Shown in pieces: positions 32,274-53,300 of a DNA stretch of 64,000 nucleotides. The notes beneath the pieces were generated by a model. That model searched no databases, was not told where the DNA came from, and saw only the letters and a list, made by a program, of their open reading frames with translations. The stretch is from NCBI GenBank assembly GCA_039588295.1, contig JBDHAB010000001.1:256001-320000 (forward strand), read 5' to 3'. Each line of letters starts with the position of its first letter. Positions within the stretch are counted from its first letter, which is position 1. Position numbers and translations under genes: made by a program. This DNA comes from Gemmatimonadota bacterium (GTDB lineage: Bacteria; Gemmatimonadota; Gemmatimonadetes; Gemmatimonadales; GWC2-71-9).

Positions 32274-32332
32274 TTCAGTGACCTGTTGCCTCGGGCTTGG
32301 AAGTTCCAGCGGTCCGGGGTCATGAGGCGTTC

Positions 32333-33373
32333 ATGGTCAGTCCAGCAGTAGCCCTACTCATTTTCGGTGCCGCTGCCCTGCTTCTTGCCGGGGTGTTTTG
32401 GCCGCGGCAGGGCCTGGTCGCTCGGCTCATGCGCCTCGCAGCCCTGACCGAGCGCGTGCGGCTCGAGGACGCGGTGAAGCACCTGCACGACTGTGACTAT
32501 CGAGGTCAACCAGCCTCGGTCGAGAGCGTGGCAGGGGCCTTGGAGGTAACACGGGCTCGTGCGGTGGGCTTCGTTGCGCGGCTCGAGGCACTGGGGCTCG
32601 TCCGGACTTCGGCGGAGCGTGTGGTACTCACGTCGGTGGGCCGGGCCGAGGCGCTCAGGCTGCTGCGCAGCCATCGCTTGTGGGAGCGCTACTTGGCAGA
32701 TCGCACCGGTTTGGGGCCTGCCGAGTGGCACGACGAGGCGGAACGCCTCGAGCACAGGCTCTCACCCACCAAGGTCGAGGCGTTGGCGTCATCGATGGGG
32801 CATCCGGTTTACGACCCCCATGGTGATCCCATCCCTACGGCCGCGGGCAAGCTCCCGCCGCGCGCCGGGTTTGCCGTGACTGCGCTGCGGCCGGGCCAGG
32901 CTGCGTCGATCGTGCACTTGGAGGACGAGCCGCGAGCGGTGTTCGAGCAGCTGGTCGCGGCCGGGCTGGCCCCGGGAATGCAAGTGCAGCTCCTCGATGC
33001 GTCCGCCGAGCGCGTTCGCCTGTTGGCCGACGGGCGGGTGCATGCGCTCGAGCCGGTGATCGCCACGAACATCACGGTCGCACCGACTGAGGGGCTGCCG
33101 GAACCCGCCGGGCCGTTCGAAACCCTGGCGGATTTGGAAACCGGAGACCGCGTTGTCGTGCGTGACATCGCGCCGGTGTGCCAGGGTCCCCAGCGGCGAA
33201 GGTTGCTGGACCTCGGCCTGGTGCCGGGCACGGAGGTCGCGGTGGAGTTCAGGGGTCCCCTCGGTGAGCCGATCGCCTATCGCATTCGGGGTGCCGTAAT
33301 CGCGTTGCGACGCGAACAGGCGGAGCTGGTGCGGATCGAGCGAGATGGCGCGTCTGTTGAGGCCGCGACGTGA
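32333..33373 (+). CDS. DtxR/MntR-family metalloregulator with N-terminal TM helix and two FeoA domains
   Basis: EDAVKHL, RSHRLWERYL, EAERLEH, DPHGDPIP; two FeoA-like SH3 domains (GLAPG..., RRLLDLGLVPG...IALRRE). Confidence 0.9.
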   Translation: MVSPAVALLIFGAAALLLAGVFWPRQGLVARLMRLAALTERVRLEDAVKHLHDCDYRGQPASVESVAGALEVTRARAVGFVARLEALGLVRTSAERVVLTSVGRAEALRLLRSHRLWERYLADRTGLGPAEWHDEAERLEHRLSPTKVEALASSMGHPVYDPHGDPIPTAAGKLPPRAGFAVTALRPGQAASIVHLEDEPRAVFEQLVAAGLAPGMQVQLLDASAERVRLLADGRVHALEPVIATNITVAPTEGLPEPAGPFETLADLETGDRVVVRDIAPVCQGPQRRRLLDLGLVPGTEVAVEFRGPLGEPIAYRIRGAVIALRREQAELVRIERDGASVEAAT

Positions 33374-35613
33374 CCTCAACGGCGGCCGCTCCCTGTGTGG
33401 GGTGTCATGCGAATCGGGCGAGCAGCCTTGTTCAGCTGGGTGTCCGGCCGGGCCGATGGGACTATCTCGTCGCGCTCGCCGGGAATCCCAACACCGGGAA
33501 GAGCACGGTCTTCAACGCCCTGACTGGGCTGCGTCAACACACCGGGAACTGGCCTGGTAAGACGGTCGTTCGCGCGGAGGGCGGCTTCGAACTCCACGAC
33601 GCTCGGGTCAAGCTCATCGATCTGCCGGGTACGTACTCCCTCCAGGCGGGGAGCGCCGACGAGGAAGTCGCACGCGATTTCATTCTGTTCGGTCGACCCG
33701 ACGTGACGGTCGTGGTAGTCGACGCGACCCGCCTCGAGCGGAACTTGAACCTGGTGCTCCAGATTCTCGAGATCACCGATCGGGTCGTCGTGTGTCTCAA
33801 CCTCATGGACGAGGCTCGCCGTCATGGCGTGGGCATCGACGTTGCCAAGCTCGCCAAGGAACTGGGCGTGCCGGTCATCCCGACCGTGGCCCGCCAGGGC
33901 AACGGCGTTCCCGAGTTGCTGGAGGCGATCCACGAGGTGGCCACCGGGGCAGTGACGACGGCGCCGTTTCGGATCGAGCGGCACCCAGCGGACGTTGAAG
34001 CCGCCATCGGTACACTCGTCCGGACGATCCGTGAGTCCTACCCCGAGCTCCCCAATGCCCGGTGGGTGGCGCTGCGCCTGCTCAATGCGGATGAGCGAGT
34101 CGAATCCGCGGTACGGGCGGGCGATTTGGGCGATCTGTCGGAACGTCCGTGGCTCGAGGCCGGCGAGACGGTCGCGGTGGAGTCGGATCCGGGTGCGTCT
34201 CCCGTGGGGGAGCGGATTCTCGACCACGCGACCTCGCTTCGATGGACGCTCAGCCCCCGGTTCCACGACTCGTTGACCGAGAGTATGTACGGCGAGGCGC
34301 AACGCATTGCCGGCGGGTCGATGGTGCGCGGCCTCAAGCGCACGAAGTTCGACATGGATCGCTTCCTCGACCGTCTATTGACGAGCAAGCGCTTCGGGTT
34401 CCCGATGATGTTGCTCATCCTGGCGCTTGTCTTCTGGGTCACGATCTCCGGGGCCAACGTCCCATCGCAGCTCCTCGCGACGTTGTTCATCGACACGTTA
34501 CATCCGGCGCTCACGGGATTCGCGGCTGCGATCGGGATTCCGCCGTGGATCAACGGTCTCGTGTTGGACGGGGTGTACCTCGCAACCGCCTGGGTCGTGA
34601 GCGTGATGCTGCCGCCGATGGCCATCTTCTTTCCGCTCTTCAGCCTGCTCGAGGACTTCGGTTACCTCCCCCGAGTGGCCTTCAACTTGGACACGCTCTT
34701 CAAGAAGGCGGGTGCGCACGGGAAGCAGGCGCTCACGATGTGCATGGGCTTCGGGTGCAACGCGGCGGGCGTGGTCGCGACGCGGGTCATCGACAGCCCA
34801 CGCGAGCGACTCATCGCAATCATCACCAACAACTTCTCGCTCTGCAACGGCCGCTGGCCCACACAGATTCTCATTGCGACGATCTTCATCGGCGCCCTCG
34901 CACCCGCGCATTTTGCGGGACTCGTAGCCGCGAGTGCCGTGGTCGGCATCGCGGTCCTCGGGATCGTCGCGATGTTCGTGGCGTCGTGGCTGCTCTCGCG
35001 CACGGTGTTGCGGGGCGAGGCAACCACGTTCAGTCTCGAGCTGCCGCCGTATCGTCCGCCGAGGATTCTCCAGACCCTCTATACGTCGATCATCGACCGC
35101 ACCCTCATCGTCTTGTGGCGAGCCGTTCTGTTCGCTGCACCGGCGGGGGCGGTGATTTGGCTGGTCTCGAACGTCTACATCGGCGATGCCAGCCTCGCGA
35201 AGCACCTGATCGACGTGCTCGATCCGTTCGGTCTGCTGATCGGACTCAACGGGGTCATTCTGCTGGCGTACGTTGTGGCGATCCCCGCAAACGAGATCGT
35301 GATTCCCACGGTCCTGATGTTGACGGTGCTGACGCTGGGTTTGGGCGACCTCGGATCTGGTGCCGGAGTGATGTTCGAGCTCAATTCGGCCTCGGCAACG
35401 GGAGACCTGCTGCGTGCGGGCGGGTGGACCCTCGTGACGGGCATCAACCTGATGCTCTTCAGCCTTCTCCACAATCCGTGTTCGACGACACTCTACACGA
35501 TCTACAGGGAAACCGGGAGCGCTAAGTGGACCGCTGTCGCGACGCTGCTGCCGCTCGGCATGGGATTCTCCGTGTGTTTCCTGGTCACGCAGGTCTGGTT
35601 ACTGCTGGCCTGA
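33370..35613 (+). CDS. feoB: Ferrous iron (or Mn) transporter FeoB
   Basis: GNPNTGKS, GNWPGKTV, DLPGTYS, LEDFGYLPR, GFGCN, LELPPY. Confidence 0.96.
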   Translation: MTSTAAAPCVGCHANRASSLVQLGVRPGRWDYLVALAGNPNTGKSTVFNALTGLRQHTGNWPGKTVVRAEGGFELHDARVKLIDLPGTYSLQAGSADEEVARDFILFGRPDVTVVVVDATRLERNLNLVLQILEITDRVVVCLNLMDEARRHGVGIDVAKLAKELGVPVIPTVARQGNGVPELLEAIHEVATGAVTTAPFRIERHPADVEAAIGTLVRTIRESYPELPNARWVALRLLNADERVESAVRAGDLGDLSERPWLEAGETVAVESDPGASPVGERILDHATSLRWTLSPRFHDSLTESMYGEAQRIAGGSMVRGLKRTKFDMDRFLDRLLTSKRFGFPMMLLILALVFWVTISGANVPSQLLATLFIDTLHPALTGFAAAIGIPPWINGLVLDGVYLATAWVVSVMLPPMAIFFPLFSLLEDFGYLPRVAFNLDTLFKKAGAHGKQALTMCMGFGCNAAGVVATRVIDSPRERLIAIITNNFSLCNGRWPTQILIATIFIGALAPAHFAGLVAASAVVGIAVLGIVAMFVASWLLSRTVLRGEATTFSLELPPYRPPRILQTLYTSIIDRTLIVLWRAVLFAAPAGAVIWLVSNVYIGDASLAKHLIDVLDPFGLLIGLNGVILLAYVVAIPANEIVIPTVLMLTVLTLGLGDLGSGAGVMFELNSASATGDLLRAGGWTLVTGINLMLFSLLHNPCSTTLYTIYRETGSAKWTAVATLLPLGMGFSVCFLVTQVWLLLA

Positions 35614-35751: not shown

Positions 35752-36195
35752 CTACTGTGACGCCTGACGCAGATACTCGTAAATCGCCCGTGCTTCCTCG
35801 ACCGTCGTCCCCATGGGGACCATCGGAGTTCCGTACTCGGCGAGGAGCTCTTTGGCCGTCGCGTCGTCTCGCAGCATCGAATCCGGCCGCACGGTCATCC
35901 CCACGAACCAATCGTACTCGCGCCGCTCGGTCACACCCCGCAGTGCAGGACCGATCAGTCGCGTATCGAGCTGGTGGCAGCCGACGCAGCCGCGCGACTG
36001 GAAGTAGCCTTCACCCTCGCTCGCGAGCGCTTCGTCGATCGGACCGCTCGGTGCCGCCATCGTCGCGGCGGGCGCGGTCTCGGTGACAGCCGGCTCCGCA
36101 GTGTCGGCCTGCTCAGTTTGCGCGCCTTCTCCGCCACAGCCAAACGCGAGTGCCACCATCAACAAGAAAGCACCATTCCGGGCTTGCATGTTCAC
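35752..36195 (-). CDS. Lipoprotein monoheme cytochrome c
   Basis: Lipobox-like LAFGC, Ala/Thr/Pro linker, CVGCH, IGPAL, distal Met (TPMVPM). Confidence 0.88.
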   Translation of the reverse strand: MNMQARNGAFLLMVALAFGCGGEGAQTEQADTAEPAVTETAPAATMAAPSGPIDEALASEGEGYFQSRGCVGCHQLDTRLIGPALRGVTERREYDWFVGMTVRPDSMLRDDATAKELLAEYGTPMVPMGTTVEEARAIYEYLRQASQ

Positions 36196-36358: not shown

Positions 36359-36742
36359 CTACTTCTCTTTGTGGCTCAAGCTCCATACGTACGCGCCAAC
36401 GGCTCGGATCTGCTTCTCCGAGAGTGCGCTCCCGCCCTTCGGCGGCATGACGGAACCTGTCGACGACTTGTCGGGGCTCACTCCGGCAAGGATGGACTTC
36501 ACGATTCCGTCGAGCGAGCCGTCGCTGTGCAGCCACTCGTCGTCCGTGAGGTCTGCCCCGAGGTTGGGGATGCCCTTCGCGGTAGAGCCATGGCAGGCTG
36601 CACACAAGCCCTGACCCTTGTAGAGCGAGGCACCCTCCTCGATCATCTGTTTCGTGACCTCTTCCTTTTGTGCTTGCGCCAGACCCACCGAGAGTGTGGT
36701 AACGAGTGCCGCAAGGGCGAACGTACGGATCAGCCGTCCCAT
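36359..36742 (-). CDS. Periplasmic class I monoheme cytochrome c
   Basis: Signal peptide (AQA), CAACHG, GADLTDDEW, MPPKGG; GGAGG SD. Confidence 0.9.
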   Translation of the reverse strand: MGRLIRTFALAALVTTLSVGLAQAQKEEVTKQMIEEGASLYKGQGLCAACHGSTAKGIPNLGADLTDDEWLHSDGSLDGIVKSILAGVSPDKSSTGSVMPPKGGSALSEKQIRAVGAYVWSLSHKEK

Positions 36743-36761
36743 GCTTCATCCCTCCGATGTC

Positions 36762-37967
36762 TTAGAATGCTGTCGAGAGCCCGATCGTCCACCGGGCTTC
36801 GTCCAGCTGGGTGTCCCACGTTGCTTCTCCGAGCACTCTGAAGTTTCGCCTCACTAGATACCCCGCGCCAGCGGTGAGCGTTTCATAGCGCCCGATGTTC
36901 CCCGGGGCACCGAGCCGCACGTTGAGCAGAGGGCGATCGGCGTCGATGAGGTTGTAGAGTCCCAGGACGTACCAGCGTGCGTTGGCTGGGTGCAGCACCA
37001 GCTCGGCAAACCCGCCATCCAGGGTTGCCTCGGGCTCGCCAGACGTAAAGGTCGGCGTGTCGTCCTCTCGGTGGAGATACTGCACGTTCAACTCGATCGG
37101 CCCTGCCGTGACTGTCGCGTCGGCCCCGGCCATCCAGACGGTATTCTTGACCGTTGGTCCGGTGCCGACTGCTCCCTCCTGTTGTCCGAAGTATCCCATG
37201 GCGCCGAGGCGGAGGTTGGGTGTAAGGTCGCGCGTTACGTGACCGAATACGTTCTTGAAGGGATCGTTGTCGAGTCGGCGGTTCGGCTCCGCTTCCCCTC
37301 TGCCGTTCCCATTCACGACCTCGCCCGTGATTGTAAAGCCCGCGACATCGACCATCACCATCAGACCGCGGTCGTAAGTGAGGTCGGTTGGCTGCAGGCC
37401 GACTCGAGCACGGTAGACGGCGTAATCGTGGTTCTCCAACCGAAGCTCTCGCTTGAACATGGGGTCCGACACCTGAAACTGTCCGGCCGCGAGGTCGATC
37501 GGCTGCCCGGCGATGTTGTCGAGGTACACAAATGCATCCTCGATGCCTCCGACTTCCCCGCGCTCGAACAGGAAGAAGTAGAGGTAGTACGAGAACTTCC
37601 GCGAGATCGGCCCACCGGAGAGAATCTTGACGTTGTACGGGGTTTGTAGGTCGGAGCCGGACTCACCGGCGGTATACGCGCTGATGTACGCGTCCACCCG
37701 GATCGCGAGTGGGAGATCGCGATAGAGTTGGAGGAGTTCGTCACCCGTGTTGATGGTGTCGCGCGGCGGCGCGTTGGCACTCATGCGGAAGCCGTTTCCG
37801 GCGTACTGTTCCCCAAACGCGTTGAGCTTTGGAAGCAGCGTGTGACAGAGACTGCAGCTCACGCGATGGCGCCTGGCAAAGGCCGGAATGAGAGATGCGT
37901 CGGCGATGGGTGCTGCGACACAGGCGATGGCGAGTATGAAGGTGGTGATTCGAGCGGCCCGCAGCAT
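36762..37967 (-). CDS. Cyc2-like monoheme cytochrome c-porin fusion
   Basis: Signal peptide, IPAFARR-x4-CSLCH-x3-PKLNAFG-x5-NGF, then beta-strand-rich body ending in Phe (WTIGLSTAF). Confidence 0.8.
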   Translation of the reverse strand: MLRAARITTFILAIACVAAPIADASLIPAFARRHRVSCSLCHTLLPKLNAFGEQYAGNGFRMSANAPPRDTINTGDELLQLYRDLPLAIRVDAYISAYTAGESGSDLQTPYNVKILSGGPISRKFSYYLYFFLFERGEVGGIEDAFVYLDNIAGQPIDLAAGQFQVSDPMFKRELRLENHDYAVYRARVGLQPTDLTYDRGLMVMVDVAGFTITGEVVNGNGRGEAEPNRRLDNDPFKNVFGHVTRDLTPNLRLGAMGYFGQQEGAVGTGPTVKNTVWMAGADATVTAGPIELNVQYLHREDDTPTFTSGEPEATLDGGFAELVLHPANARWYVLGLYNLIDADRPLLNVRLGAPGNIGRYETLTAGAGYLVRRNFRVLGEATWDTQLDEARWTIGLSTAF

Positions 37968-38051
37968 GATGGGCTCCTGAAAGGGAGGTTCGTGGTGCTA
38001 CAGGATCAAAACACTTCGGATTGTGACGCCGCGAACGCGCGACCTAGACCG

Positions 38052-38273
38052 CTAGTGCTGCTGGGGATGTGAGTCGTGCGTTCGGGTATCGAGATGAAGG
38101 AGCGTATACAGAGGACAACTGTGGGTCAACGCGGTGGCAGCAAAGAGGAGCGCAAACACGGCGGCAACGAGAGAAATCACCACCTGCTCGTTGAACACCG
38201 TCGCGACGATCAGCAGAACTACGGCGCATGCGCCGCGAATCCAGGCATCCATCCTGCCGATGTTGGGTTGCAT
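38052..38273 (-). CDS. DUF2892 (YgaP-like) small membrane protein
   Basis: N-I-G-x-x-D-x-x-I-R, two TM helices, CPLY. Confidence 0.85.
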   Translation of the reverse strand: MQPNIGRMDAWIRGACAVVLLIVATVFNEQVVISLVAAVFALLFAATALTHSCPLYTLLHLDTRTHDSHPQQH

Positions 38274-38360
38274 GGCACCCCGTCCATTTGACATGCCATG
38301 CAGAACTTTGGGGACGCTGTATGAAGCTATCCATAACGCAATGTGAAGGTGCGTTCCGAC

Positions 38361-39749
38361 TTATTCGGTGGGTACGAAACGCGGGATGTCCAGAGTGATC
38401 CGCAAGCCGCCGAGCGGACTCTGGTCAGCATGGATTCGGCCGCCGTGTGCGTGCACGATGGCGGCGGTGATGGTGAGTCCCAGACCCGCGGCGCCGGTGC
38501 GCGCCCTTGCTACGTCACTGCGGTAGAAGTGCTCGAACAGACGTGAAAGTCGCTCGGGCGGCATGCCCGGGCCGGAATCGTCGATGGAGATCGTCACGGT
38601 TCGGAGGCTCGCGGTGACCGCAGCCCGCACGCGCGTGCCGGGGGGAGTATGCTCGATCGAGTTGTCCAAGAGTTGATCCACGGCGACGTTGAGCATTGCG
38701 GGATCGACGAAGGCGCTGGTTTCTTGAGGCGAGCGCTCGAAGTCAACGGTGCGTCCCGCTCCTCGTGTCCGTGCCTTTTGTACCGCGCGCTCCATGATCG
38801 TGCCGACATCCGATTCCATGCGCGACAAGGTCAGTTCGCCCGCCTCGAGACGTGCAAGAAGCGTGAGCGACTCACTAATAGACGTGAGGTGATCGACCTC
38901 CTCTAGGACGCTGCCGAGGATGGCCCGGTATTCCTCGGAGCGGCGGTCCCCCCGCAACGCGATCTCCAATTCCCCTCGCATTGCAGTAAGGGGAGTGCGC
39001 AGGTCGTGACCGGCGTCGGCGATCATGCGGCGTTGCGCCTCGAAGGCACGTTCGAGTCGGCCGAACACCGTGTTGAGGACCTCGATCAGGCCGGCAAACT
39101 CTTCGACATCTGCGTGCGCCGTAATCCGCTGGCCCGCGCCTGGCTGAATCGATTGTGCCTGCTCGGTAATCTCGAGCACCGGTCTGACGGTAGTTGTCGC
39201 GAGCCAGCCTGCGCCGATCGCCGTCGCGACGGTGCCGAGCAGCACCGTGCCCAGCATGAGGAATAGCACCTCACGGGTACTCGCCTGCAAGGGTCGGAGC
39301 GACGCCGCAACCTGCGTGACGACATGTTGGGATCGGCTGCCGGCCGGCGTGGGCGCGTAGTACGAACGCAGCGTCCCGCGCGCCCACTCCTGCGTCGCCC
39401 ACACAGTGTCACCGGTGAGTGCGTGTTCGAAGGCGTCCCGTGCCAACGGGAGCTCCGCCGCCAGCCCCGTGTTCGATTCGATGATGTCACCGTTCTCGTC
39501 CCGTATGGCTACGAATCGGTTCACGCGTTGGATGAACCGATCCACGTCCGCCGAGCCAGGGTGAATGGCGATCGGCAGCCGGGATGCGAGCACCGCGGCC
39601 TCGAGTTGCGCGGATGCCGCCAGGTTCCGGTCGAGGGCCTCCCGCAGAATCCGCCGTGTGCCATGATAGGCCCACAGCGCAATCAGGAGGAGAGCAACGA
39701 AGATGGTGAGGGAGAACCGCACGGCAACCGTGCGGCGGAGAGCATACAT
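38361..39749 (-). CDS. Sensor histidine kinase (CusS/CzcS-like, 2TM-HAMP-HisKA-HATPase)
   Basis: ADAGHDLRTPL, DSGPG, FYRSD, GLGL. Coupled to the upstream regulator (TGATG). Confidence 0.93.
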   Translation of the reverse strand: MYALRRTVAVRFSLTIFVALLLIALWAYHGTRRILREALDRNLAASAQLEAAVLASRLPIAIHPGSADVDRFIQRVNRFVAIRDENGDIIESNTGLAAELPLARDAFEHALTGDTVWATQEWARGTLRSYYAPTPAGSRSQHVVTQVAASLRPLQASTREVLFLMLGTVLLGTVATAIGAGWLATTTVRPVLEITEQAQSIQPGAGQRITAHADVEEFAGLIEVLNTVFGRLERAFEAQRRMIADAGHDLRTPLTAMRGELEIALRGDRRSEEYRAILGSVLEEVDHLTSISESLTLLARLEAGELTLSRMESDVGTIMERAVQKARTRGAGRTVDFERSPQETSAFVDPAMLNVAVDQLLDNSIEHTPPGTRVRAAVTASLRTVTISIDDSGPGMPPERLSRLFEHFYRSDVARARTGAAGLGLTITAAIVHAHGGRIHADQSPLGGLRITLDIPRFVPTE

Positions 39750-40435
39750 CAGCCTTGGGTGTTGTTTGTCTTCTTCAAGCAGAACCCGACGCCGCGGACT
39801 GTTTGAATCAGTCCATCGTAGCCCACCTCACGGAGCTTACGCCGCAGATTGCCGACATGGACATCGACGACGTTGCTTTCGGGATCGAAGTGCATATCCC
39901 ACACCTTCTCCAGCAACTCCGTTCTCCGCACCACGTCCTCGGGATGGAGCATGAAGTGCTCGAGAAGCTGGAACTCACGTGGAGTGAGGTCGAGGGTGTG
40001 TTCCCCGACCCAAGCCTTGTGCTTCAGTCGGTCGAGTTCGAGCGGCCCATAGTTGAGGCGATCGAGCCTTGCCGCGCCGCCCCGACGCACGAGGGCGCGG
40101 AGCCGCGCGAGCATTTCATCGAACTTGAACGGCTTCGTGAGATAGTCATCTGCGCCGGCGTCGAGGCCGCGAACAACGTCCTCGGTGGCGTCGCGCGCCG
40201 TCAGCATGAGAATAGGCGTGTTGCGCCCTTCCCGTCGAAGCTCTGAGGCCACCTGGAGGCCGTTCTTCTTCGGCAGCATCAAGTCCAGGACGATCGCGTC
40301 ATAATCGTTGATGTGTGCGAAGACGGTTGCCTCCTCACCGTCCTTGGCGACATCGACGGCGTAGCCTTCTTCACGAAGGCCCATCTCTATGAATCCAGCA
40401 ACCTTACGGTCGTCCTCGACTACGAGAATGCGCAT
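39749..40435 (-). CDS. OmpR-family response regulator (CusR-like)
   Basis: MRILVVEDD, LDLMLP, GADDYLTKPF, SNVVDVHV, TVRGVGF. Confidence 0.95.
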   Translation of the reverse strand: MRILVVEDDRKVAGFIEMGLREEGYAVDVAKDGEEATVFAHINDYDAIVLDLMLPKKNGLQVASELRREGRNTPILMLTARDATEDVVRGLDAGADDYLTKPFKFDEMLARLRALVRRGGAARLDRLNYGPLELDRLKHKAWVGEHTLDLTPREFQLLEHFMLHPEDVVRRTELLEKVWDMHFDPESNVVDVHVGNLRRKLREVGYDGLIQTVRGVGFCLKKTNNTQG

Positions 40436-40493: not shown

Positions 40494-41741
40494 TTATGAT
40501 GGCTCCATGCGTCGCGGCACCTGCAGAGAGAAGCGGGCTCCGTGCCCGAGCTGACTCTCGACCCGGAGATCGCCGCCCAAGAGGCGCGCAAGCTTGCGTG
40601 AGAGTGCGAGCCCCAGTCCGGTGCCGCGTTCGGTGTGCTTGCCGGCGCGTTCGAAGGCCTCGAAGATGACCACTTGCTGCTCGGGCGCAATGCCTTCGCC
40701 ATGGTCGACGACGTCGAAGCGCAGTGTGTCGTCCGTCGCGTGGAGCTCGACGCGAATGGCCTGGTCCTGAGGGCTATGTCGTACCGCGTTCGTGAGCAGG
40801 TTGATCAGTATCTGACGGATCCGCTGCGGATCGGTATGGCACTCGACGACCCCGTCCGGGCCAGTCAGCGCGACACCGACGCCGCGCCGCTCGGCCGCGG
40901 GCTCGACCGTCGACACCGCCTCTCGCACGACGTCCCACGCGTCTGCCTTCTCGACAGCGGGCTCGAGTTTGTCCGCATCGATGCGGCTGAGATCGAGCAG
41001 GTCCTCAAGGAGGTTCAGCGCTCGTTCCGCGGACTCCTGCACTTCCAGTGCCGCTCTGGGCGTACTGGGGCTCGTCTTTCGTATCCAGAGCTCGGTCCAT
41101 CCGTGGACCGCCGTGAGCGCGTTGCGCAACTCGTGGTTCGTCATGGCGAAGAAGCGCTCGCGTGAGTCGTGCATCTGCCGAAGTTCGCGGACGAGCCCCT
41201 CGCGTTCCTCGTAGTGTCGGGCGTTTTCGAGGGCCACGGCAGCGTGAGCCGCCAACATCACCGCGAAGGCCTCGTCCTCGGCGGTAAACTCGGGTGCACC
41301 GATCTTCTCCGTCAGGTAGAGGTTCCCGATCGGACCCGTGCGCCCCCATATGGGCACGCCGAGGAACGACTTCATGGGTGTGTGGTGGGGTGGGAACCCC
41401 AACGCCTTCGCATGTTTCCGCAAATCCTTCAGTCGAATGGGCTTTGGGTCGGTTATCAGCAGGCCCAAGAGGCCCTTGCCGGTGGGGGGATGGCCGACCT
41501 GTGCCTCGCTCGCCTGGTTCGTCCCGCTCGTGAGGAACCGTTCGAGCCCGGTCCCCTCCCGGTTGACGACGCCAAGCGCTGCGTAGCGGGCCTCGATCAC
41601 CGCGCGCGCCGACTCCACCACCTCTCGCAGCACTCCGTCCAGATCGAGCGCGGACGTGATGCGGATCGCGGCTTGACTGAGACGTTCCGCGCGCTGCCAC
41701 ACGGTGTGACTACCACGTGAATCGGGAGACATACTGTCCAC
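40494..41741 (-). CDS. Cytoplasmic GAF-domain histidine kinase (DosS/DevS-type GAF)
   Basis: ARYAALGV, GHPPTGKGLLG, GFPPHHTPMKSFLGVP, NLYLTEK; NHELRN, NAVRHS, GTGLGL. Confidence 0.9.
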   Translation of the reverse strand: MDSMSPDSRGSHTVWQRAERLSQAAIRITSALDLDGVLREVVESARAVIEARYAALGVVNREGTGLERFLTSGTNQASEAQVGHPPTGKGLLGLLITDPKPIRLKDLRKHAKALGFPPHHTPMKSFLGVPIWGRTGPIGNLYLTEKIGAPEFTAEDEAFAVMLAAHAAVALENARHYEEREGLVRELRQMHDSRERFFAMTNHELRNALTAVHGWTELWIRKTSPSTPRAALEVQESAERALNLLEDLLDLSRIDADKLEPAVEKADAWDVVREAVSTVEPAAERRGVGVALTGPDGVVECHTDPQRIRQILINLLTNAVRHSPQDQAIRVELHATDDTLRFDVVDHGEGIAPEQQVVIFEAFERAGKHTERGTGLGLALSRKLARLLGGDLRVESQLGHGARFSLQVPRRMEPS

Positions 41742-41839: not shown

Positions 41840-42571
41840 GTGGATCCTACGTTCGTCGTCCTGATCTATTCAGTGGGCGCAGCCAGCGTTAGCGGCCTCG
41901 GGGCGGTCCCGCTGATGGTCCGAGCTCGGCTGCCACTCTCGTGGATCGGGTGGTCGAACGCGCTCGCGGCCGGACTCATGCTGGGAGCCGCCTACGCGCT
42001 GATGGTCATGGGGCTCGAGCGAGTCACCGGGGCCGAAATGCTCGGTGCGTTGATCGGGATCGGTTTTGTGTATTGGACGCACGCAGTCTCAGGCACGGCC
42101 GATCTCGACTTGAACCGCCTCGAGGAGACGAGCCCGGTCTACGGGTACAAGGTGCTGCTCAGCGACACGCTCCACGCGTCCGCCGAAGGCGTGGCCATCG
42201 GCGTCGCGATGACGGTGAGCCTGCCGTTCGGAGCGTTCATGGCGCTCGCGATCGCGGTCCATAACATTCCCGAGGCGACGGTGCTTGCGGCGATCCTCAC
42301 GAGTCGCGGTGTCCGGCTGCGTGACGCGGCGGGGCTCGCCGTTGCCGCCAACGTGAGTCAAGTTCTGCTGGCGATCGTGAGCTTCGCACTCATCACCGCC
42401 GCGCCCGCATTGCTCCCATGGGGACTCGGCTTTGCGGTCGGATCCTTGGTCTATCTCGTGATGGTCGAGCTGCTTCCCGAATGTTACCGACAGGCGGGAC
42501 ACACGAGCATCGCATTGGTGACCATCGTTGCGATGGGGATTCTGGTGCTGCTGGTTGGCGGCGGGATGTAG
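41840..42571 (+). CDS. ZIP-family (ZupT/GufA-like) metal transporter, copy 1
   Basis: AAGLML, LHASAEG, HNIPEA, VELLPE; about 8 TM. Confidence 0.88.
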   Translation: MDPTFVVLIYSVGAASVSGLGAVPLMVRARLPLSWIGWSNALAAGLMLGAAYALMVMGLERVTGAEMLGALIGIGFVYWTHAVSGTADLDLNRLEETSPVYGYKVLLSDTLHASAEGVAIGVAMTVSLPFGAFMALAIAVHNIPEATVLAAILTSRGVRLRDAAGLAVAANVSQVLLAIVSFALITAAPALLPWGLGFAVGSLVYLVMVELLPECYRQAGHTSIALVTIVAMGILVLLVGGGM

Positions 42572-42583
42572 GTGAGGTAACAC

Positions 42584-43312
42584 ATGAACCAGGTCTTCGT
42601 TGTGTTCCTCTATGGCCTCGCGACGGCTCTCGCGACTGGACTGGGAGCAGTGCCGTTCGCCTTCGCGCGACGGGTCTCGCCGAGCGCCATTGCGTACGCC
42701 AATGCGGTCGCCTCCGGCCTGATGCTCGGCGCGAGTTTCGGGCTCGTGGCCGAAGGGACGGACTACGGGAGTTGGCAGACTGTGCTCGGCGCATTGTCGG
42801 GTGTGGCGTTCATCCGGCTCACCCAAGTACTCCTGCGGCGACACGACCTTGAGTTTGGCAAGGTCCGCGGCGGGGGTGCGCGGCAGATGCTGTTGATGCT
42901 GATCGTCATGACCGTGCACTCGTTTGCCGAAGGGGTCGCCGTCGGCGTGTCCTTCGGCGGCGGCATGACGCTCGCCTTCGTGATCGTGGTCGCCATCGCC
43001 GTCCACAACATTCCTGAAGGGCTCGCCATCAGTGCCGTGTTGCGTCCCCGTGGCATGTCGGTGGCGGCCTGTGCCGGCTGGAGCATCATGTCCTCGCTCC
43101 CGCAGCCGATCATGGCGGTGCCGGCCTTCCTCCTCGTTGACGCCTTCACCCGCGTGCTTCCGTACGGCATTGGGTTCGCCGCCGGCGCGATGGTCTTCTT
43201 GGTACTCGAAGAGCTATTGCCGGAGGCGTTCGATCGGGCGCGACGTCCCCACGTCGCCCTGGTGGTGAGTCTCACGCTCGTCGGCATGATGGTGTTCCAA
43301 CGCTTCCTGTGA
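42584..43312 (+). CDS. ZIP-family (ZupT/GufA-like) metal transporter, copy 2
   Basis: ASGLML, VHSFAEG, HNIPEG, SSLPQP, FAAGAM, ELLPEA. Confidence 0.92.
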   Translation: MNQVFVVFLYGLATALATGLGAVPFAFARRVSPSAIAYANAVASGLMLGASFGLVAEGTDYGSWQTVLGALSGVAFIRLTQVLLRRHDLEFGKVRGGGARQMLLMLIVMTVHSFAEGVAVGVSFGGGMTLAFVIVVAIAVHNIPEGLAISAVLRPRGMSVAACAGWSIMSSLPQPIMAVPAFLLVDAFTRVLPYGIGFAAGAMVFLVLEELLPEAFDRARRPHVALVVSLTLVGMMVFQRFL

Positions 43313-43353
43313 CGCGTGGCGGCGTCGCACCCAATGCCGAGAGTGAGAGACAG

Positions 43354-43385
43354 ACGGCGGGAGCACATGGATGCGCTCCCGCCGT
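43354..43385. terminator. Hairpin between convergent ZIP and cbaA genes
   Basis: Perfect 11-bp stem ACGGCGGGAGC/GCTCCCGCCGT. Confidence 0.55.
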
Positions 43386-43415
43386 GGCTATCCGAGCCGT
43401 GTCACGCGGTTGCCG

Positions 43416-45038
43416 TCAGAACGGCCGGAACCCTGGAGACCCGAACGTCTCCATGGCGAGATGGCTGCTGAGTGGGTAGGCGTATGCGATAACGACGAGC
43501 ACGACTGCCACGACGACCCACACCCACATCCGATCGAAGACACCGAGACGCTGCGGGTTCCCGGCGACCGGCACTGCAAACTCCAGTGCCGGCTGCTCAC
43601 GACGTTGGCCGGCGAGGACAGTGCCCAGCATCACGAGCAGGAAGAAGGACGCACTGATGAAGAGGAGAATGCCTCCGAGTGCAGAGACTAGTGTGAGGCT
43701 TGACCACTGTGCGGCGATCTCGCTGCCACCATACCCTGTCTCGAACACACGCCGCGGCATGCCCATGAGTCCGGTGATGTGGTTCGAAATGGAGAACAGC
43801 AGCATCCCGAGGAACCACAAGTAGGGCTGCACTCTAGCGAGCAGTCCCAACTCGAGTTCTCGGCCCGTCAGTTTCGGCACGAGCCAGTAGGAAGCGCCCA
43901 TGAACGTGAGTGCCGTTGCGGTGCCAACCGTCAAGTGAAAGTGGCCCTGGATCCACGCGGTGTTGTGCACCATCGAGTTCATGCCGAAGGCGGCGTTGAT
44001 GGATCCTCCGAATCCGCCGATGGCGAAGAGCAACATGCTCAGTAACACAGACGCCACCAATGGGTCGCCCCACGGGAGCTTCCCCAACCAGTCGAACAGG
44101 CCGCGCGCGCCCTTCATCCGGCCGGCCACCTCGAGCGACGCGGTCACTGTGAACGCGGTGACGAAGCTGGGAAACAGAATGCCGAAGGTCGTCAGGGTGT
44201 GCACCATCTTCCAGCCCGAACTGATGCCTGGGTCCATGAACTGGTGATGGAATCCGACGGGTGCCGAGAGGATGATGAACAGCGCGAAGACCATTCGAGC
44301 GAGCGGATCACTGAAGAGGCGCCCGCCGGCCACGCGTGGCACGACCGCGTACCAAATCACGTAGGCCGGGATGAGCCAGAAGTACACCAGCGGGTGCCCG
44401 AAGTACCAGAACAGCATTCGGGCGAGCAGTGGATCGACGGTCTCTTTCAGTCCAAGTGACCACGGCACGAGTTGGAACAGCATCTCCACAGCGACGCCGA
44501 CAGTGGCGAGGAGCCACACGATGATCGTGGTCATGATGCCGTAGACCGCGAGGGGTACCGGCTGTCCGGGATTGTCCCGCCGCCACCCCAAGTACGTGGC
44601 GATCGTCACCGCGCTCCAAATCCAGGATCCCACGACCACCAGCGTGAGCCCGATGTAGAATGCCGGATGGGCCTGCATGGGAGGGTAGAACGTGTACAAC
44701 ACGCTGGCCTTCCCCCAAAGAATGGCCCAGCCGGCGGCGAGCGTTCCGATGACCGCGACCCAGAACCCAACCCAGGCGAGTCCGGCGCCCTTGAGCGGTC
44801 GGCCCAGCGCCCGGGTCGTGAGCGCCACGCCCAATCCCATGATGAAGAAGGTCGTGAAGATCAGGGCCATCAGCACGCCATGACCGGTGACCGAGAGGTA
44901 GTACATGCTGGCGGTGCGCCCCGGCAGATCGAGGGCTGCGCGTGACAGCGCCTGCATGAATGCCATGAACGTCGCGATGCCGAAGGCACCCACCGCGACG
45001 CCAATGTTGGCCGTAGCGAGGCGTCGATTGTACATCAT
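43416..45038 (-). CDS. cbaA: B-family (ba3-type) heme-copper oxidase subunit I
   Basis: HGVLMA, LYTFYPP, FWYFGHPLVYFW, GFHHQF, HNTAWIQGHFH, GMPRR. Confidence 0.95.
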   Translation of the reverse strand: MMYNRRLATANIGVAVGAFGIATFMAFMQALSRAALDLPGRTASMYYLSVTGHGVLMALIFTTFFIMGLGVALTTRALGRPLKGAGLAWVGFWVAVIGTLAAGWAILWGKASVLYTFYPPMQAHPAFYIGLTLVVVGSWIWSAVTIATYLGWRRDNPGQPVPLAVYGIMTTIIVWLLATVGVAVEMLFQLVPWSLGLKETVDPLLARMLFWYFGHPLVYFWLIPAYVIWYAVVPRVAGGRLFSDPLARMVFALFIILSAPVGFHHQFMDPGISSGWKMVHTLTTFGILFPSFVTAFTVTASLEVAGRMKGARGLFDWLGKLPWGDPLVASVLLSMLLFAIGGFGGSINAAFGMNSMVHNTAWIQGHFHLTVGTATALTFMGASYWLVPKLTGRELELGLLARVQPYLWFLGMLLFSISNHITGLMGMPRRVFETGYGGSEIAAQWSSLTLVSALGGILLFISASFFLLVMLGTVLAGQRREQPALEFAVPVAGNPQRLGVFDRMWVWVVVAVVLVVIAYAYPLSSHLAMETFGSPGFRPF

Positions 45039-45511
45039 GAACCCTCCTCGACGATCAACTTCGCGGCCATGTTGTGATGCCCCGTGCCACAGTACTCGTT
45101 GCACACGATCAGATATTCACCCGGTGTGTCGAACGTCGTGGTGAGTTGGCTGACGTAGCCGGGGATGACCATGGTGTTCACGTTCGTCCCGACGATTTGG
45201 AACCCATGGACGATGTCGGGACTCGTCATGCGGAACGTGACGGGTCTCCCTGCGGGAACCCGGATCTCGCCGGGTTGAAAGACCCAAATCTGGGCGACCA
45301 GCGTCACCTCGACACTGCCGTCCGGATTGACCTTCACGCCGCGGTCGGCGAAGCGGGCGTCAGCGAACACCGTTCGCGGGTCAATGGTCTCGACGTGGCT
45401 CGGCGGCACACGTCCTTGCGAGACCGTGGCGAACCCGATGGCACCGAGAAACAGCACGATAATCGCGCCGGCGGCCCACATCCAGATTTTCTCATAGAGA
45501 TCGATGTGCAT
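45035..45511 (-). CDS. cbaB: ba3-type oxidase subunit II (CuA)
   Basis: One TM helix, DIVHGF, CNEYCGTGHHNM. Confidence 0.95.
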   Translation of the reverse strand: MHIDLYEKIWMWAAGAIIVLFLGAIGFATVSQGRVPPSHVETIDPRTVFADARFADRGVKVNPDGSVEVTLVAQIWVFQPGEIRVPAGRPVTFRMTSPDIVHGFQIVGTNVNTMVIPGYVSQLTTTFDTPGEYLIVCNEYCGTGHHNMAAKLIVEEGS

Positions 45512-45517
45512 GACGTC

Positions 45518-45658
45518 CTACCTCGTCACGACGCCGCGGGGCAGATACACGAAGAGAAAGATCGCGAGCCAGCCGACGGCAAACAGCAAGCCGTAGAGTC
45601 CGACCAGCGCCAGGGTTCCGCGCGGGTGCTTCCCGAGGTCCGGGGGTTGGTCACTCAT
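45518..45658 (-). CDS. ba3-type oxidase subunit IIa (46 aa; absent from the ORF track)
   Basis: Hand translation MSDQPPDLGKHPRGTLALVGLYGLLFAVGWLAIFLFVYLPRGVVTR; AAGGAG SD; single TM directly upstream of subunit II. Confidence 0.85.
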   Translation of the reverse strand: MSDQPPDLGKHPRGTLALVGLYGLLFAVGWLAIFLFVYLPRGVVTR

Positions 45659-45696
45659 GCAGCTCTCCTTGTCAGAACAGGGGACTACCGAATGGG

Positions 45697-46098
45697 TTAG
45701 ATCCTGCCCTCAGCGACGGCGCGCACGATATCGCTTTGCGCGACGACGCCAAGAAGCTCGTCGGCCGAAACGACAAACAGGCGGTGCACGTCTAGCTCGA
45801 GCATCTGTTTGGCAGCCAAGCGCACATCTGCGTCCGGTCCGATGGTTTTCGGGGGCGTGGTCATGATGTCACGCACCGTGGTATCCTCGAAGAATTCTTC
45901 GCCGTCACCGGAGCTCGATCGTTCGGCGGTCGCCTGCACGATGTCGCTGGAGGACAGCACGCCGACCAGCCGCCCGCGGCGATCGACCACCGGTACGGCG
46001 TGCACGTGGGCATCGGCCAACTGCATCACTGCCTCTTGGACCAAGACGTCTTGGTGAACGACCGTGAGATCGGTGATCATCAATGATGCAACGTTCAT
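45697..46098 (-). CDS. CBS-pair domain protein
   Basis: VASLM, VPVVD..GRLVGVLS..DI, VRDIMT, VHRLFVV. Confidence 0.92.
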   Translation of the reverse strand: MNVASLMITDLTVVHQDVLVQEAVMQLADAHVHAVPVVDRRGRLVGVLSSSDIVQATAERSSSGDGEEFFEDTTVRDIMTTPPKTIGPDADVRLAAKQMLELDVHRLFVVSADELLGVVAQSDIVRAVAEGRI

Positions 46099-46198
46099 GG
46101 CGTCTCGCCCTCTTGGCGTCCCAGCAGCGCGTGGTGCTGGCGGGGTATGCTACGGAAACGCGCCGCCGACGCAAGTCCTTGGCGCATCGTTGCGTGAG

Positions 46199-47071
46199 TC
46201 AACGATTCTGGCCCGCCCCCCGGACGGGAACGACCAGCACGGATGTCGGCAGCCGGTTCAGGAGCCGTTCCGTCGTGCTACCGAGCAGCACGCGATCCAC
46301 CCAGCCCTTGCCGTGCGAACCCACGATGACGAGGTCTGCCTTCCATTCGGCGGCTTCGTCGGCTATAGAGCGGGCCGGAGCACCGACCCGAACCACCCTG
46401 TCGAGTTGGCGGCCGGGTGCTGCCGCGTCCAGCAGCTCGTTGGTGCTCGCCTCGGCCAGTCGGATGTGCTCCTCTTCGTTGAGCTGTACGCCTACGTCCG
46501 GGACGGAGGGAAGCGGCTCGACCACGTGAAGGACTCGCAGCGTTGCCGCGAACGCGTTGCTGAACCGCTGCGCCGCGTGGAGTGCCAGCGCGGCGGCATC
46601 TGACTGGTCCACCGCAACCAGCACGCGGTGGAACGTCGTCATCGGTGCTGTGACCACGAGGAGCGGGACATCGATCGTTCGCACCGCGTTGTGGACCGTG
46701 CTCCCACCGAACCATCGGACGGGTGCGGCGTGGTGCTTGCCGCCCAGAACAAGCAACTCGGCTCGGTGTTGGGTGACCGCTTGGGCCAGCATCCACGTCG
46801 GGTTGCCGACGCGGACCTCGAGGCGCTCGAGCGCCTCCGGCTGCACGCGGTTGCGGAGGTACTCCTCGACCGCTCCACGAGCCGCCGCGGTCCACCCCTC
46901 GGCCAGCCGTTCGCGATCTCGTGTGGGAAGATGAGGTGCGGTGGGCTCCTTGGCCACGTGGACCAGGTGGCAGGGCGCACTGGTGGCCTGGGCCACAGCG
47001 AGGCCGGCAGCGGCCGCCTGCACTCCCTCGGGCGAAGGATCGACGCCGACCACGACCGGTCGCCAAGTCAT
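46199..47071 (-). CDS. Tandem universal stress protein
   Basis: VVVGVD, LLVLG...FGGSTV, VLVAVD, IVGSHG...LLGSTTERL. Confidence 0.93.
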   Translation of the reverse strand: MTWRPVVVGVDPSPEGVQAAAAGLAVAQATSAPCHLVHVAKEPTAPHLPTRDRERLAEGWTAAARGAVEEYLRNRVQPEALERLEVRVGNPTWMLAQAVTQHRAELLVLGGKHHAAPVRWFGGSTVHNAVRTIDVPLLVVTAPMTTFHRVLVAVDQSDAAALALHAAQRFSNAFAATLRVLHVVEPLPSVPDVGVQLNEEEHIRLAEASTNELLDAAAPGRQLDRVVRVGAPARSIADEAAEWKADLVIVGSHGKGWVDRVLLGSTTERLLNRLPTSVLVVPVRGAGQNR

Positions 47072-50058: not shown

Positions 50059-50322
50059 TCGTACGTGGCAGACACTGGCCGGATTGCGAGCGAGGTCTCG
50101 ATAGGCCGCTTTCAAGCCGGACCGAATTGGGACATACTTCATAGACAAACGCCGATGCGCGCGGTGGAGCCGCCGTCAGAGTTCGGTCCACCCCGATACC
50201 GCCAGGGAAAGGACTGAGATGCCTCCTGCCTCCAGTGGCGTTCAATGCGTTGGACCGTCACCCCTCGCGCATCCCACGTGCCAGACAAGACCAGGCTCAG
50301 CCCACCTCGATTGGTCTCGACC

Positions 50323-53300
50323 ATGAAGATTCCATCGACGTTCTCGACCACATTCGGCCCGCCGATCTTCGACGATCCAGAGCGCTCCCGCACTGCTTGG
50401 CTCGTGCACGGGGTGCTCGTTGGAACGATTGTCCTCGTGTTACCGCTGGCGGCCCTCGTTCCGGTGTTCAATCCCAGTCCGCTTCCCGTGTTGAAGTTGG
50501 CAGCCGCGCTAATCGCAGCTGCCATTCTCGGGCTGCTAGTCGTTCGCCGTGGCGCCCTGCGAGCTGTCTGTGTCGGCTTCACCTTGTTTGTGTGGTTTGT
50601 GATGGCGTTCGCCACCGCCGTCGACGGCGGGCTCCGAGCGCCGGCCATGCTTGGGTTTCCGGTCGTGATCCTGCTCGCGGGCTTCTTCCTGGGCCGCCGG
50701 GCAGCCGTCGGGCTCGCAGTTACGACTGCGCTCGGAGCGCTTGCACTCCTGTGGCCTGAGGTCCACGGGATGCTGCCGGCGGACCCGATACCGCTCGGCC
50801 TGCTGTGGCTGGCGGCCGCGGCGAGTCTGGCGGGTGTGGTGCTGTTCGTCCATTTCGCGCTCCGGCTTGACGAAGACCGGCGTGACGCGGAGCGGCGCCT
50901 CCGGCGAGCATTGCAGGCGGCGCAGATCGGAACGTGGGAATGGGACGTCACAGGTGGGGGCATCACGTGGTCCACGAATGCCGAGCGGCTCTTCGGACTT
51001 CGCCGTAGGAGCTTCGGGGGCACGTACCAGGCGTACATCGACTTGATCCACCCACAGGATCGGGAGCGCGTTGAGGCCCGGCTACAGCAAGCGCTGGATC
51101 GGGCGAGTCGATTCGAGGTCGAGCACCGCATTGAGCGTCCAGATGGCTCGGTGCGATGGCTTGCGAGTCGGGGGGAAGTGACGGAGTTCGAGGCGGGCCG
51201 ATCGGTTCGGATGGCAGGAATGGTGTTGGACATCACGGAGCGTCACGTAGCCGAGGAGCGACTGCTACGCCAGGTCGAGCGCAACCAGGCGATTCTGAGT
51301 TCGACCGCTGACGGGTTCGCCGTGCTCCGGCCGGATGGTCAGTTGGTCGAGGTGAATGACGCCCTGTGCCAGATGCTTGGATACTTGCGCGACGAACTGT
51401 TGGGTATGAACGCCGCCCAACTCGACGCGCAGATGACCCCGGGAGATATCGAACGAACACTCGAGGAATCGCAACGGAGCAGTCTGGGTTTCGAGACCAC
51501 CGCCCGCCGTAAAGATGGTTCGATCTTCGACATCGATGTCAGCACGGTCATGTTGTCGGCCGAGGATGGGCCGGCGATCGCGGCGTTCGTGCGCGATATC
51601 AGTGCTCGCAAGGATGCGGAGGCTGCACTCCGTGAGAGCGAGGAACGGTATCGGGTGCTGTTCGAGAATTCCCCAGCTGGCATTGGGGTCGTGGGTCCCG
51701 ACGGCGGTATTCGGGCGTTCAACAGAGCGATGCTCGAACCTGGCGGATATACCCCCGAGGATATTCGGCGTCTCGAGTCCGTCGATGAGTTGTACGCCGA
51801 TCCCGAAGCACGGGTGCGCACGTTGACGAAGTTCCAGCGAGACGGGTTCGTGCGGGGTGAGGAGGTGCGGTTTCGAGCCAGCGACGGCGGCACGTACGAT
51901 GCCGTCATGAATCTTAACTCCGTGACGTTCGACGAGGAGCCGTGTCTCATCGCTCACGTCGAGAATGTAACCGAACGCAAGCGCACGGAAGAGGCGCTAC
52001 GACAGAGCGAAGAGCGGTATCGGCGCCTGGCCGACAATGCGCCGGCCATCATCTATCGCTTGCGTCTGGGTGACGATCCCGGCTTCGACTACATCAGCCC
52101 TGGGGTAGAGCCCGTGTCGGGGTACACGCCGGAGGAGTTCTACGAGGACCCGGGGTTAGGTGTGAGGATTATCCACCCCGACGACCGTCCTGGGCTTGAT
52201 GCCCTGGTTCGAGGAGTCTTGCCCGAGTCACCGCACGCAGTGCGTTGGATCCGTAAGGACGGGACGATGGTCTGGACTGAGGATCGGGCCGTACCGGTCT
52301 ACGATGACGGGGGCGCGCTGGTGGCCGTGGAAGGGGTTGCTCTCGACATCACGCAGCGAATGCAAGCCGAGGAGCGCCTGAAGCAATCGGAAGAACGCTA
52401 CCGTACGCTGCTCGAGCGACTGCCGTATGCAGTCTACCGTAGCACGCCGGATGGGCGATTTCTGGATGCAAACCCCGCACTGGTTGGTATGCTAGGCTAC
52501 GACAGTGACGCGGAGTTGAAGACACTCGACATTCGCTCCCAGGTCTATGCAGAACCCGCCGCGCGGGACAAGGTCTTGCGGGATGCGGTAGATGGCGGCC
52601 TCGCAGAAATCCGACTCCGCCGAAAGGACGGCTCGCTGTTGTGGGCGGAGGATCGAACGGTGCCTGTTCTGGACGACGATGGAGAGGTGATGTGCTACGA
52701 GGGCACCTTGCAGGACATCACGGATCGCAAGCGCTCCGAAGAACAGCTCCGGGCGAGTGAGGCGACGTTCCGTGCGGTGTTCGAAGGCGCCGGGATAGGC
52801 ATGGCGGCGGTGGACTTGGATGGCCATATCCTGAGCTGCAACGCCGCCCTTGCAGAACTCCTGGGGTACGAGCGAGCGGTGCTCGTGGGCATGAACGTCG
52901 CGGATGTCTCCCATCCAGACGACCAGGATCGCGATTTGGCGCTGAAGCAGGAAATGGTGGAGGACGGCAGAGACGTTGGTGCGATGGACAAGCGGTACGT
53001 CCGCAAAGACGGCTCGATCATCTGGGGCCGTTTGACGATCTCATTGGTGCGAGACCCGACCGGTGAGGTGCAGTTTGTGATCGGGATGGTGGAGGATGTT
53101 ACTGAGCGACGAGCCGCCGAACGGGCCCTCCGCGCATCGGAACAGCGGTTGGCGAAGACGTTCGGCCTGAGCCCGGATGCAATCGCGATCACCAAGGCGA
53201 GCGACGGCAGGTTGGTGGAGGTTAACGACACGTTCGTGCGGCTGTCAGGATACTCCCGGGAGGAGGCGATTGGGAGAGATACGGTTTCACTCGGAATCTG

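Follow-up and report, generated by a model that had tools for sequence, protein, structure and literature searches.

A Cyc2-type gene and its immediate neighbours

The 64,000-nucleotide (nt) window analysed here (the whole stretch of contig JBDHAB010000001.1 under study, within which all coordinates are given) comes from a Gemmatimonadota genome and carries, at 36762-37967 on the minus strand, an intact gene for a 401-amino-acid (aa) fused monohaem cytochrome and beta-barrel porin of the Cyc2 type, recognised by its motif, its fold model and a structural match to the porin OprP, and belonging to a known and widespread kind. A first-pass annotation had proposed such a protein in an operon with a periplasmic cytochrome c, and the parts that it named are in place: the leader, the quoted haem motif and the terminal Phe all lie in this one reading frame; a class I cytochrome gene (cytA; 36359-36742, minus strand) begins after a gap of 19 nt containing GGAGG; and a DUF2892 gene (PF11127; 38052-38273, minus strand) lies 84 nt upstream. 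Its figure of about 330 aa of beta-strands was right about the barrel and too generous about the length, which comes to ~315 aa (residues ~88-400).

A Sec signal peptide is predicted for residues 1-24 (37896-37967, minus strand) by inspection of the basic start, hydrophobic core and A-D-A, in an N-terminus that is variable in alignment. Pattern and alignment place the haem-domain motif IPxFAR-RH-xxx-CxxCH-xxx-PxL at residues 27-48 (37824-37889, minus strand), with PxFAR to PxL spanning residues 28-48 and the haem-site residues being C38, C41, H42 and P46-K-L48. This is the single CxxCH of the protein, near the mature N-terminus, the sole further Cys being in the leader, and its spacing from PxFAR is that of the Q-T-type homologues L084 and L085. 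Among the features by which Keffer et al. (2021) recognise Cyc2, the porin has a leader (by inspection) and CxxCH with PxL four residues downstream, and its length is above the Cyc2 minimum of 365 aa. It departs from the consensus AXPXFAR[Q/K][T/Y] at three positions and would be discarded by a literal filter; the strict [QK][TY] form of the motif had no match in the six frames of the genome, and the pattern P.FAR.....C..CH...P.L had one in 9.0 million six-frame residues, with 3e-5 expected from composition. A profile of close relatives found no second porin copy in the genome. The codon-position GC content of the gene is that of its neighbours, and contigs from four public sediment runs match parts of it at 98-100% identity, one of them crossing the junction between porin stop and cytochrome start with zero differences; read mapping gave patchy cover and no joint across the porin gene.

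Predicted fold

An AlphaFold2 model of the porin, built without haem from a 73-row alignment, has a pLDDT (predicted local distance difference test) of 87 and a predicted template modelling (pTM) score of 0.86, and consists of two short helices flanking the haem site followed by 16 long strands. Structure prediction had been proposed as a check on the first reading of the sequence, and it gives a barrel: the model, the strand count and the match to OprP (2O4V) together predict 16 strands and a terminal Phe at 36765-37706 (minus strand). In an exhaustive VIA structure search OprP 2O4V came first (Z 24.5, root-mean-square deviation 2.7 over 291 residues), Omp32 was tied with it within 1 Z, and MtrB 6R2Q ranked 39th (Z 11.5), while Foldseek returned porins of the general and the anion-selective kind, placing OprP second and OprO sixth. 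OprP and OprO are also the templates named for Cyc2 by Keffer et al. (PMC8406198). The 16-stranded fold is thus shared with these Pseudomonas anion-selective porins, although OprP is ~15% identical to the window porin and has no haem domain. A conduit of the MtoAB/MtrAB kind was considered and rejected, as the window porin has one fused haem and 16 strands and not a separate decahaem cytochrome with an MtrB-type barrel.

The motif, the one haem site, the length and the OprP-like barrel bear out the Cyc2-like architecture first proposed; the protein would sit in the outer membrane with its haem attached and its haem domain at the barrel's periplasmic mouth. This copy matched no Pfam or NCBIfam model (Porin_4 was matched weakly by 8 of 73 aligned clade members), phmmer and profile searches found no sequence relatives in the PDB at E up to 10, and the ESM Atlas returned 'hypothetical protein' clusters only, one with Porin_O_P in 20% of its members. 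A complex prediction of porin, cytA and haem scored 0.09 against a mark of 0.32 and is not used as evidence.

Family, motif variants and cluster placement

Surveys covered 201 genomes of the phylum and, for gene neighbourhoods, 80 loci. Matches to a profile of the porin clade occur in 96 of the 201 genomes, three of them as barrel-end fragments only; 31 genomes hold the porin at full length, and in most of the remaining matching genomes the haem-domain end alone is matched, these being more distant Cyc2-like genes. Cyc2 has already been reported from Gemmatimonadota (PMC11316326, PMC9671151, PMC9769843), and PMC11316326 describes wide annotation of homologues across marine metagenome-assembled genomes (MAGs) of the phylum. 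The best named relatives of the window porin are Gemmatimonadota proteins at 60-70% identity, followed at 42-50% by proteins of Ignavibacteria, Bacteroidetes, Calditrichota, KSB1, Eisenbacteria and Aminicenantes; a search of representative proteins returned 2,865 with E values of 0.001 or below and 150 at 1e-30. The Caballeronia and Methylocystis plasmid homologues of Q-T type were found via the N-terminus only, ten distant representatives had no informative protein names, and most proteins found with a profile of distant members were unnamed, those with names coming from Ignavibacteria and Bacteroidetes.

Within the clade none of the 73 rows of alignment A2 departs from the motif residues P, R, both C, H and the P downstream of them. 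The two letters after PxFAR, readable in 75 of the 80 loci, are KY in 38, RY in 36 and RH in one, and among 120 proteins RY in 66, KY in 47 and RH in two. The RH of the window porin is a private variant, 74 of 75 readable relatives having KY or RY; it had been flagged as a caveat and is no concern, since full-length orthologues at 60-66% identity bear the exact KY letters. A literal [Q/K][T/Y] filter, used in building the published Cyc2 tree (PMC8406198), would exclude the RY and RH forms; Keffer et al. themselves call the motif a consensus and recommend hidden Markov models (PMC8406198). No second His or Met is invariant in the clade, the best being mature Met255 (63/73) and His219 (51/73). 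A barrel segment, GQFQxSDPxFKRELRL...DY (mature residues 138-158, A2), is near-invariant across phyla, exceeding much of the haem domain, and is a candidate pore or substrate-binding loop.

Published placements of Gemmatimonadota Cyc2 suggest that the porin belongs to cluster 3, to which a phylogeny assigns a Gemmatimonadota Cyc2 (PMC9671151); the members of clusters I and II listed in PMC9769843 include neither Gemmatimonadota nor Calditrichota, which leaves cluster 3 by exclusion. A Calditrichota MAG of the latter study, Dive96_bin3.89, carries a full-length clade member (L073) that is 47% identical to the window porin. As described in PMC8406198 and PMC13647500, the cluster 3 proteins Cyt572 of Leptospirillum and Cyc2 of 'Ca. 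Mariimomonas ferrooxydans' share with it the signal peptide, the single CxxCH domain and the 16-stranded barrel; in this comparison by description, the hosts of the tested cluster 3 proteins are autotrophs, whereas the window host is apparently heterotrophic and belongs to a genus in which the gene is dispensable. Cluster 1 (Mariprofundus PV-1, Ghiorsea TAG-1) and cluster 2 (Acidithiobacillus ferrooxidans) proteins have the same domain order and the same templates, OprP 2O4V and OprO 4RJW. The porin clade differs from them in having K/R-Y (R-H in the window) after PxFAR, and the window partners differ in being the monohaem cytochromes cytA and cytB and an oxidase of ba3 type or of the A family; a cbb3 oxidase was not found. 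ExtI of Geobacter (extHIJKL, PMC5877670) is likewise a ~400-aa putative phosphate-porin-like barrel beside a pentahaem cytochrome, an arrangement that the clade has in Ignavibacteria, but is described there as being without a haem-binding motif, in contrast to the motif invariant in 73/73 sequences here. Identity with ExtI is ruled out by the presence of CxxCH and by neighbours that are ygaP and cytA, not extHIJKL.

A conserved cassette with a predicted regulator

In the family of the window porin the gene order is conserved: GAF kinase, response regulator, membrane kinase, ygaP, porin, cytA. In the window, all on the minus strand, these are a soluble single-GAF histidine kinase with a DosS/DevS-like GAF (40494-41741; PDB 2W3D and others, E 9e-36), an OmpR-family response regulator (39749-40432; PF00072 and PF00486; TIGR01387 at 222 bits, below the cut-off of 279), a membrane sensor histidine kinase nearest to heavy-metal sensors (38361-39749; TIGR01386 at 215 bits, below the cut-off of 292) and the DUF2892 gene introduced above, here called ygaP, which encodes a YgaP-like two-helix membrane protein (PF11127 at 49 bits, cut-off 25; Cys53-Pro54 kept in 12/12) and is the first gene of the predicted transcript. 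Between membrane kinase and ygaP lies a triple direct repeat with an 11-bp period, TTCAC-N6-TTxx-N7-TTCAT (38321-38347, minus strand), which has a single match in the genome and recurs in 17 of 22 cassette loci and in 0 of 11,000 shuffles, the pattern having been derived from the same loci, so that the 17/22 does not count as independent evidence. OmpR-family sites typically have an 11-bp period, and the repeat is a candidate site for the upstream OmpR-family regulator, which is 80-95% identical across cassettes and would control ygaP, porin and cytA. Inspection of the three next-best matrix matches to the box gave no convincing respiratory target; a promoter scan found no sigma-70 site and terminators at shuffle level. 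No description of the cassette or of cyc2 loss was found in the open-access literature searched, and the putatively two-component-regulated cassette with its 11-bp-periodic box, like the repeated loss of the porin from it described below, is new.

Several further observations concern the signalling and metal-related genes. Among the closest genomes the response regulator is 93-95% identical, and the neighbouring kinases only 58-72%. A His in the GAF kinase aligns with the 'GHLP' His of DosS, which we take to be the DosS haem ligand; together with the DosS match it suggested an oxygen-sensing cassette, a candidate weakened by the occurrence of this His in 1 of 19 readable orthologues, namely the window copy only. 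Two ZIP transporter genes, a ba3-type oxidase and CBS and USP genes (41840-47071) accompany the cassette. On the plus strand, 32297-35613 holds a DtxR/MntR-FeoA fusion and FeoB between a gene for a tnaA-like beta-eliminating lyase and cytB; these are missing at this site in same-genus relatives, and 1 of the 80 loci has them. Also on the plus strand, by inspection, 50245-56949 holds the gene for a membrane histidine kinase of 2,234 aa with multiple PAS/GAF domains, after which come a NarL-type regulator and more hybrid kinases.

Repeated loss of the porin from the cassette

Fifteen regions taken by best cytA match (a biased choice) held the cassette in 13 cases, four with an intact porin and nine without a porin at the site; in two of the nine (G158 and G037) the porin is elsewhere in the genome. 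Directly before cytA, 3' porin scars of differing lengths remain in G147, G107, G110 and G061: G147 matches the intact G174 at 92-93% on either side of a ~1.17 kb gap, the G110 remnant is decayed, and that of G061 matches its sister L006 over a short stretch of DNA. A direct search of genomes that are 95-97% complete found no other porin copy in G107, G110, G061 or G091, and nothing beyond the scar in G147, while G068 and G058 have distant N-terminal matches only. In a tree of three signalling proteins (23 rows), G110, G061 and G091 are each sisters, at 100/100, of an intact locus (L003, L006 and L004, respectively), G147 and G107 group with the intact G174, and G068 is nested among intact loci. 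The porin has gone from the cassette site on at least five separate occasions, each of which left cytA in place; in the host genus the gene is dispensable. MAG misassembly is a possible source of such scars; the differing breakpoints and the decay of the remnants argue for real deletions.

Partner cytochromes, oxidases and host metabolism

The product of cytA is a periplasmic class I monohaem cytochrome c of His/Met type, CcoP-domain-like, above the Pfam cut-offs for PF13442 and PF00034 and with CcoP as its best PDB match; its CxxCH and Met are invariant in 17/17. Such a His/Met ligand set is typical of higher-potential carriers. Among loci with at least 500 nt of room, cytA lies directly 3' of the porin in 33 of 74 (28 counted and five whose matches overlap the porin end), and of the 31 genomes that hold the clade at full length at least 16 have cytA next to the porin; genes of its family also stand next to some divergent Cyc2-like paralogues, for example in G172, G183 and G039. 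CytA is the likely electron acceptor of the porin haem. A second monohaem cytochrome c, cytB (35752-36186, minus strand; PF00034), is a probable lipoprotein from a lipobox seen by inspection and lies downstream of cytA in the closest relatives; its best PDB match is 3CP5 (E 7e-22), presumably a Rhodothermus cytochrome c. In one Gemmatimonadota genome (L017:9267-15802) genes for 8-, 18- and 16-haem cytochromes follow the porin instead of cytA. The B-family (ba3-type) haem-copper oxidase of the window (43416-45511, minus strand; subunit I 43416-45104, subunit II 45035-45511; PF00115/PF00116; 1EHK at E 7.5e-123) lies 5.4 kb upstream of the porin and is a possible terminal acceptor; it is present only in some cassettes and is missing from three same-genus cassettes whose genomes have a distant B-family oxidase elsewhere.

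The host genome is 96% complete and encodes one A-family and one B-family oxidase, with no third PF00115 match and no cbb3 oxidase found; it has a clade II NosZ over its cut-off, a NapA-like protein in two pieces (667 and 238 bits, cut-off 931), cytochrome c maturation genes and 33 open reading frames (ORFs) with two or more CxxCH, and no NiFe hydrogenase was found in it. A search for carbon fixation, covering the RuBisCO route only, found no true RuBisCO, which suggests that the module is an energy supplement for an organoheterotroph and not a chemolithoautotrophic core. The public runs that hold the sequence best are marine sediment metagenomes of one study (shares 0.30 and 0.23), and none of the listed runs is an RNA run. 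Elsewhere in the genome lie a large cluster of multihaem cytochromes with up to 21 CxxCH and NrfD-family genes (G000:C4:115411-144877); a run of genes for a pentahaem cytochrome, a molybdopterin-fold protein and two NrfD-family proteins (G000:C7:174907-182060), a layout that we take to be alternative complex III; and a molybdopterin enzyme whose frame contains a single TGA and which may be a selenocysteine formate dehydrogenase (G000:C3:90495-91766, minus strand).

What the cytochrome-porin may do

We put at about even the chances that the porin is an accessory electron inlet in the outer membrane of a heterotroph, oxidising Fe(II) and passing the electron to cytA and on to an oxidase or nitrogen-oxide reductase. 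On this proposal the protein, its haem attached in the periplasm, would be exported and would fold into the outer membrane; Fe(II) in solution would enter the barrel, reach the porin haem and be oxidised; the electron would move from that haem to cytA and then to a terminal oxidase or nitrogen-oxide reductase; and Fe(II) electrons would supplement organotrophy under particular conditions. Fe(II) as the donor, the inward direction and cytA as the direct acceptor are each inferred. Fe(II) is favoured because the five Cyc2 homologues described as tested in the papers cited here all oxidise it, which is support by family: A. ferrooxidans Cyc2, Leptospirillum Cyt572 and Mariprofundus PV-1 Cyc2 as described in PMC8406198, Ghiorsea TAG-1 Cyc2 in PMC13692758, and a cluster 3 Nitrospirota Cyc2, in whole Escherichia coli cells, in PMC13647500. 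The agreement of the anatomy with the published Cyc2 definition, the pairing with His/Met-type cytA, the cytochrome c maturation genes, the marine sediment origin of the best-holding runs and the high-potential sinks of the host (ba3-type and A-family oxidases, NosZ and the NapA-like protein) also count in its favour. The first-pass annotation had named a low-potential haem with no Fe(II)/Mn(II) oxidation among the findings that would speak against the assignment; low potential by itself would be too strict a criterion, as the Cyc2 of Ghiorsea has a potential of -130 mV and yet oxidised Fe(II) in an in vitro assay that used an artificial acceptor (PMC13692758).

A number of points weigh against Fe(II) oxidation through cytA. 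Cluster 3 is the cluster whose function Keffer et al. term most uncertain (PMC8406198), and FeGenie records cluster 3 cyc2 in iron reducers such as Geobacter (PMC7005843). Electron paramagnetic resonance (EPR) of Ghiorsea Cyc2 is reported to indicate two haem ligands of His/Met type; that the clade has no second His or Met that is invariant raises doubt. The Caballeronia Q-T homologue aligns with the porin over its first 40 residues only, so that barrel-side substrate determinants are not comparable. The ease with which the porin is lost is a further doubt, and the cytA family, present in 127 of 201 genomes against 31 for the porin and kept after porin deletion, is not dedicated to the porin. 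An obligate link to ba3 or FeoB is ruled out, the ba3-type oxidase occurring in 10 of 31 porin carriers and 35 of 170 other genomes (related genomes, not independent) and feoB near the porin in 1 of 80 loci. In 11 of the 80 loci, none from Gemmatimonadota, a pentahaem cytochrome of ~450 aa stands directly upstream of the clade porin (Ignavibacteria, Bacteroidetes, Calditrichota and KSB1; L065, L067-L074, L076, L080). Finally, the sole RuBisCO match of the host is a 391-aa frame, whose active-site region reads like that of a RuBisCO-like protein.

Some of these points would also fit the same conduit working with another partner or in another direction, taking up electrons from Mn(II), reduced humics or sulfur species, or exporting them, for instance to chelated Fe(III), Mn(III) or quinones once oxygen is exhausted. 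We regard this as possible but less probable. To the cluster 3 genes of iron reducers and the unconserved sixth His/Met ligand may be added the 33 host ORFs with multiple CxxCH, the position of cluster 3 cyc2 beside the electrode oxidiser Tenderia in published trees (PMC9769843), the statement that annotation does not tell oxidation from reduction in marine Gemmatimonadota (PMC11316326), and the pentahaem partner of other phyla, whose best NCBIfam match, below threshold, is ExtKL (41 bits, cut-off 250). The local partners, however, are His/Met monohaem cytochromes like oxidase donors, which would fit inward flow better, and the tested homologues described in PMC8406198, PMC13692758 and PMC13647500 all oxidised Fe(II).

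It is unlikely that the protein is instead a channel plugged by haem and controlled by a two-component system that senses metal or stress, serving metal handling (periplasmic Fe(II) being oxidised for detoxification, for example) or redox or NO buffering with the YgaP-like protein. The kinase and regulator do score best, below cut-off, against heavy-metal CusS/CusR-type models, two ZIP transporters with USP and CBS genes accompany the cassette, and the porin is repeatedly deleted while the remaining cassette is kept; but across 73 sequences of 45-72% identity there is no variation in the haem domain or in many residues of the barrel, and the pairing with cytA extends beyond the cassette (33 loci), the kinase being directly upstream in only ~9 of 80. 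It is very improbable that the gene is a decaying or non-functional copy, or that it encodes an ordinary porin in which CxxCH arose by chance, for although the copy differs from the consensus (RH for KY, and L in place of A before IP) and the gene is missing from relatives that once had it, the 401-aa frame is intact, the invariant A2 residues are all present (by construction), the motif is expected by chance at 3e-5, RH recurs in further full-length members, and public-run contigs support the sequence.

Returning to Fe(II) oxidation, a wider and more doubtful proposal may be put forward tentatively: that heterotrophic Gemmatimonadota of marine sediments carry an inducible, plug-in iron-oxidation module, switched by the OmpR-family regulator through the tandem 11-bp box and discarded by deletion of the porin alone when unprofitable. 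Here the Cyc2 haem, possibly with a sixth ligand other than His or Met, would feed the ordinary cytochrome-to-oxidase chain of the host.

Implications

The cyc2 gene is a widely used marker of microbial iron oxidation, and most environmental matches to it fall in cluster 3, the function of which is debated. The window gene is itself an ordinary example; what it adds is a putatively regulated cassette together with relatives that lack only the porin, and thus a matched comparison, the sister genomes with and without the gene being natural knockouts for the function of cluster 3 Cyc2. If the clade does not oxidise Fe(II), many published 'iron oxidiser' calls would be wrong; if it does, abundant sediment heterotrophs would join iron cycling as mixotrophs.

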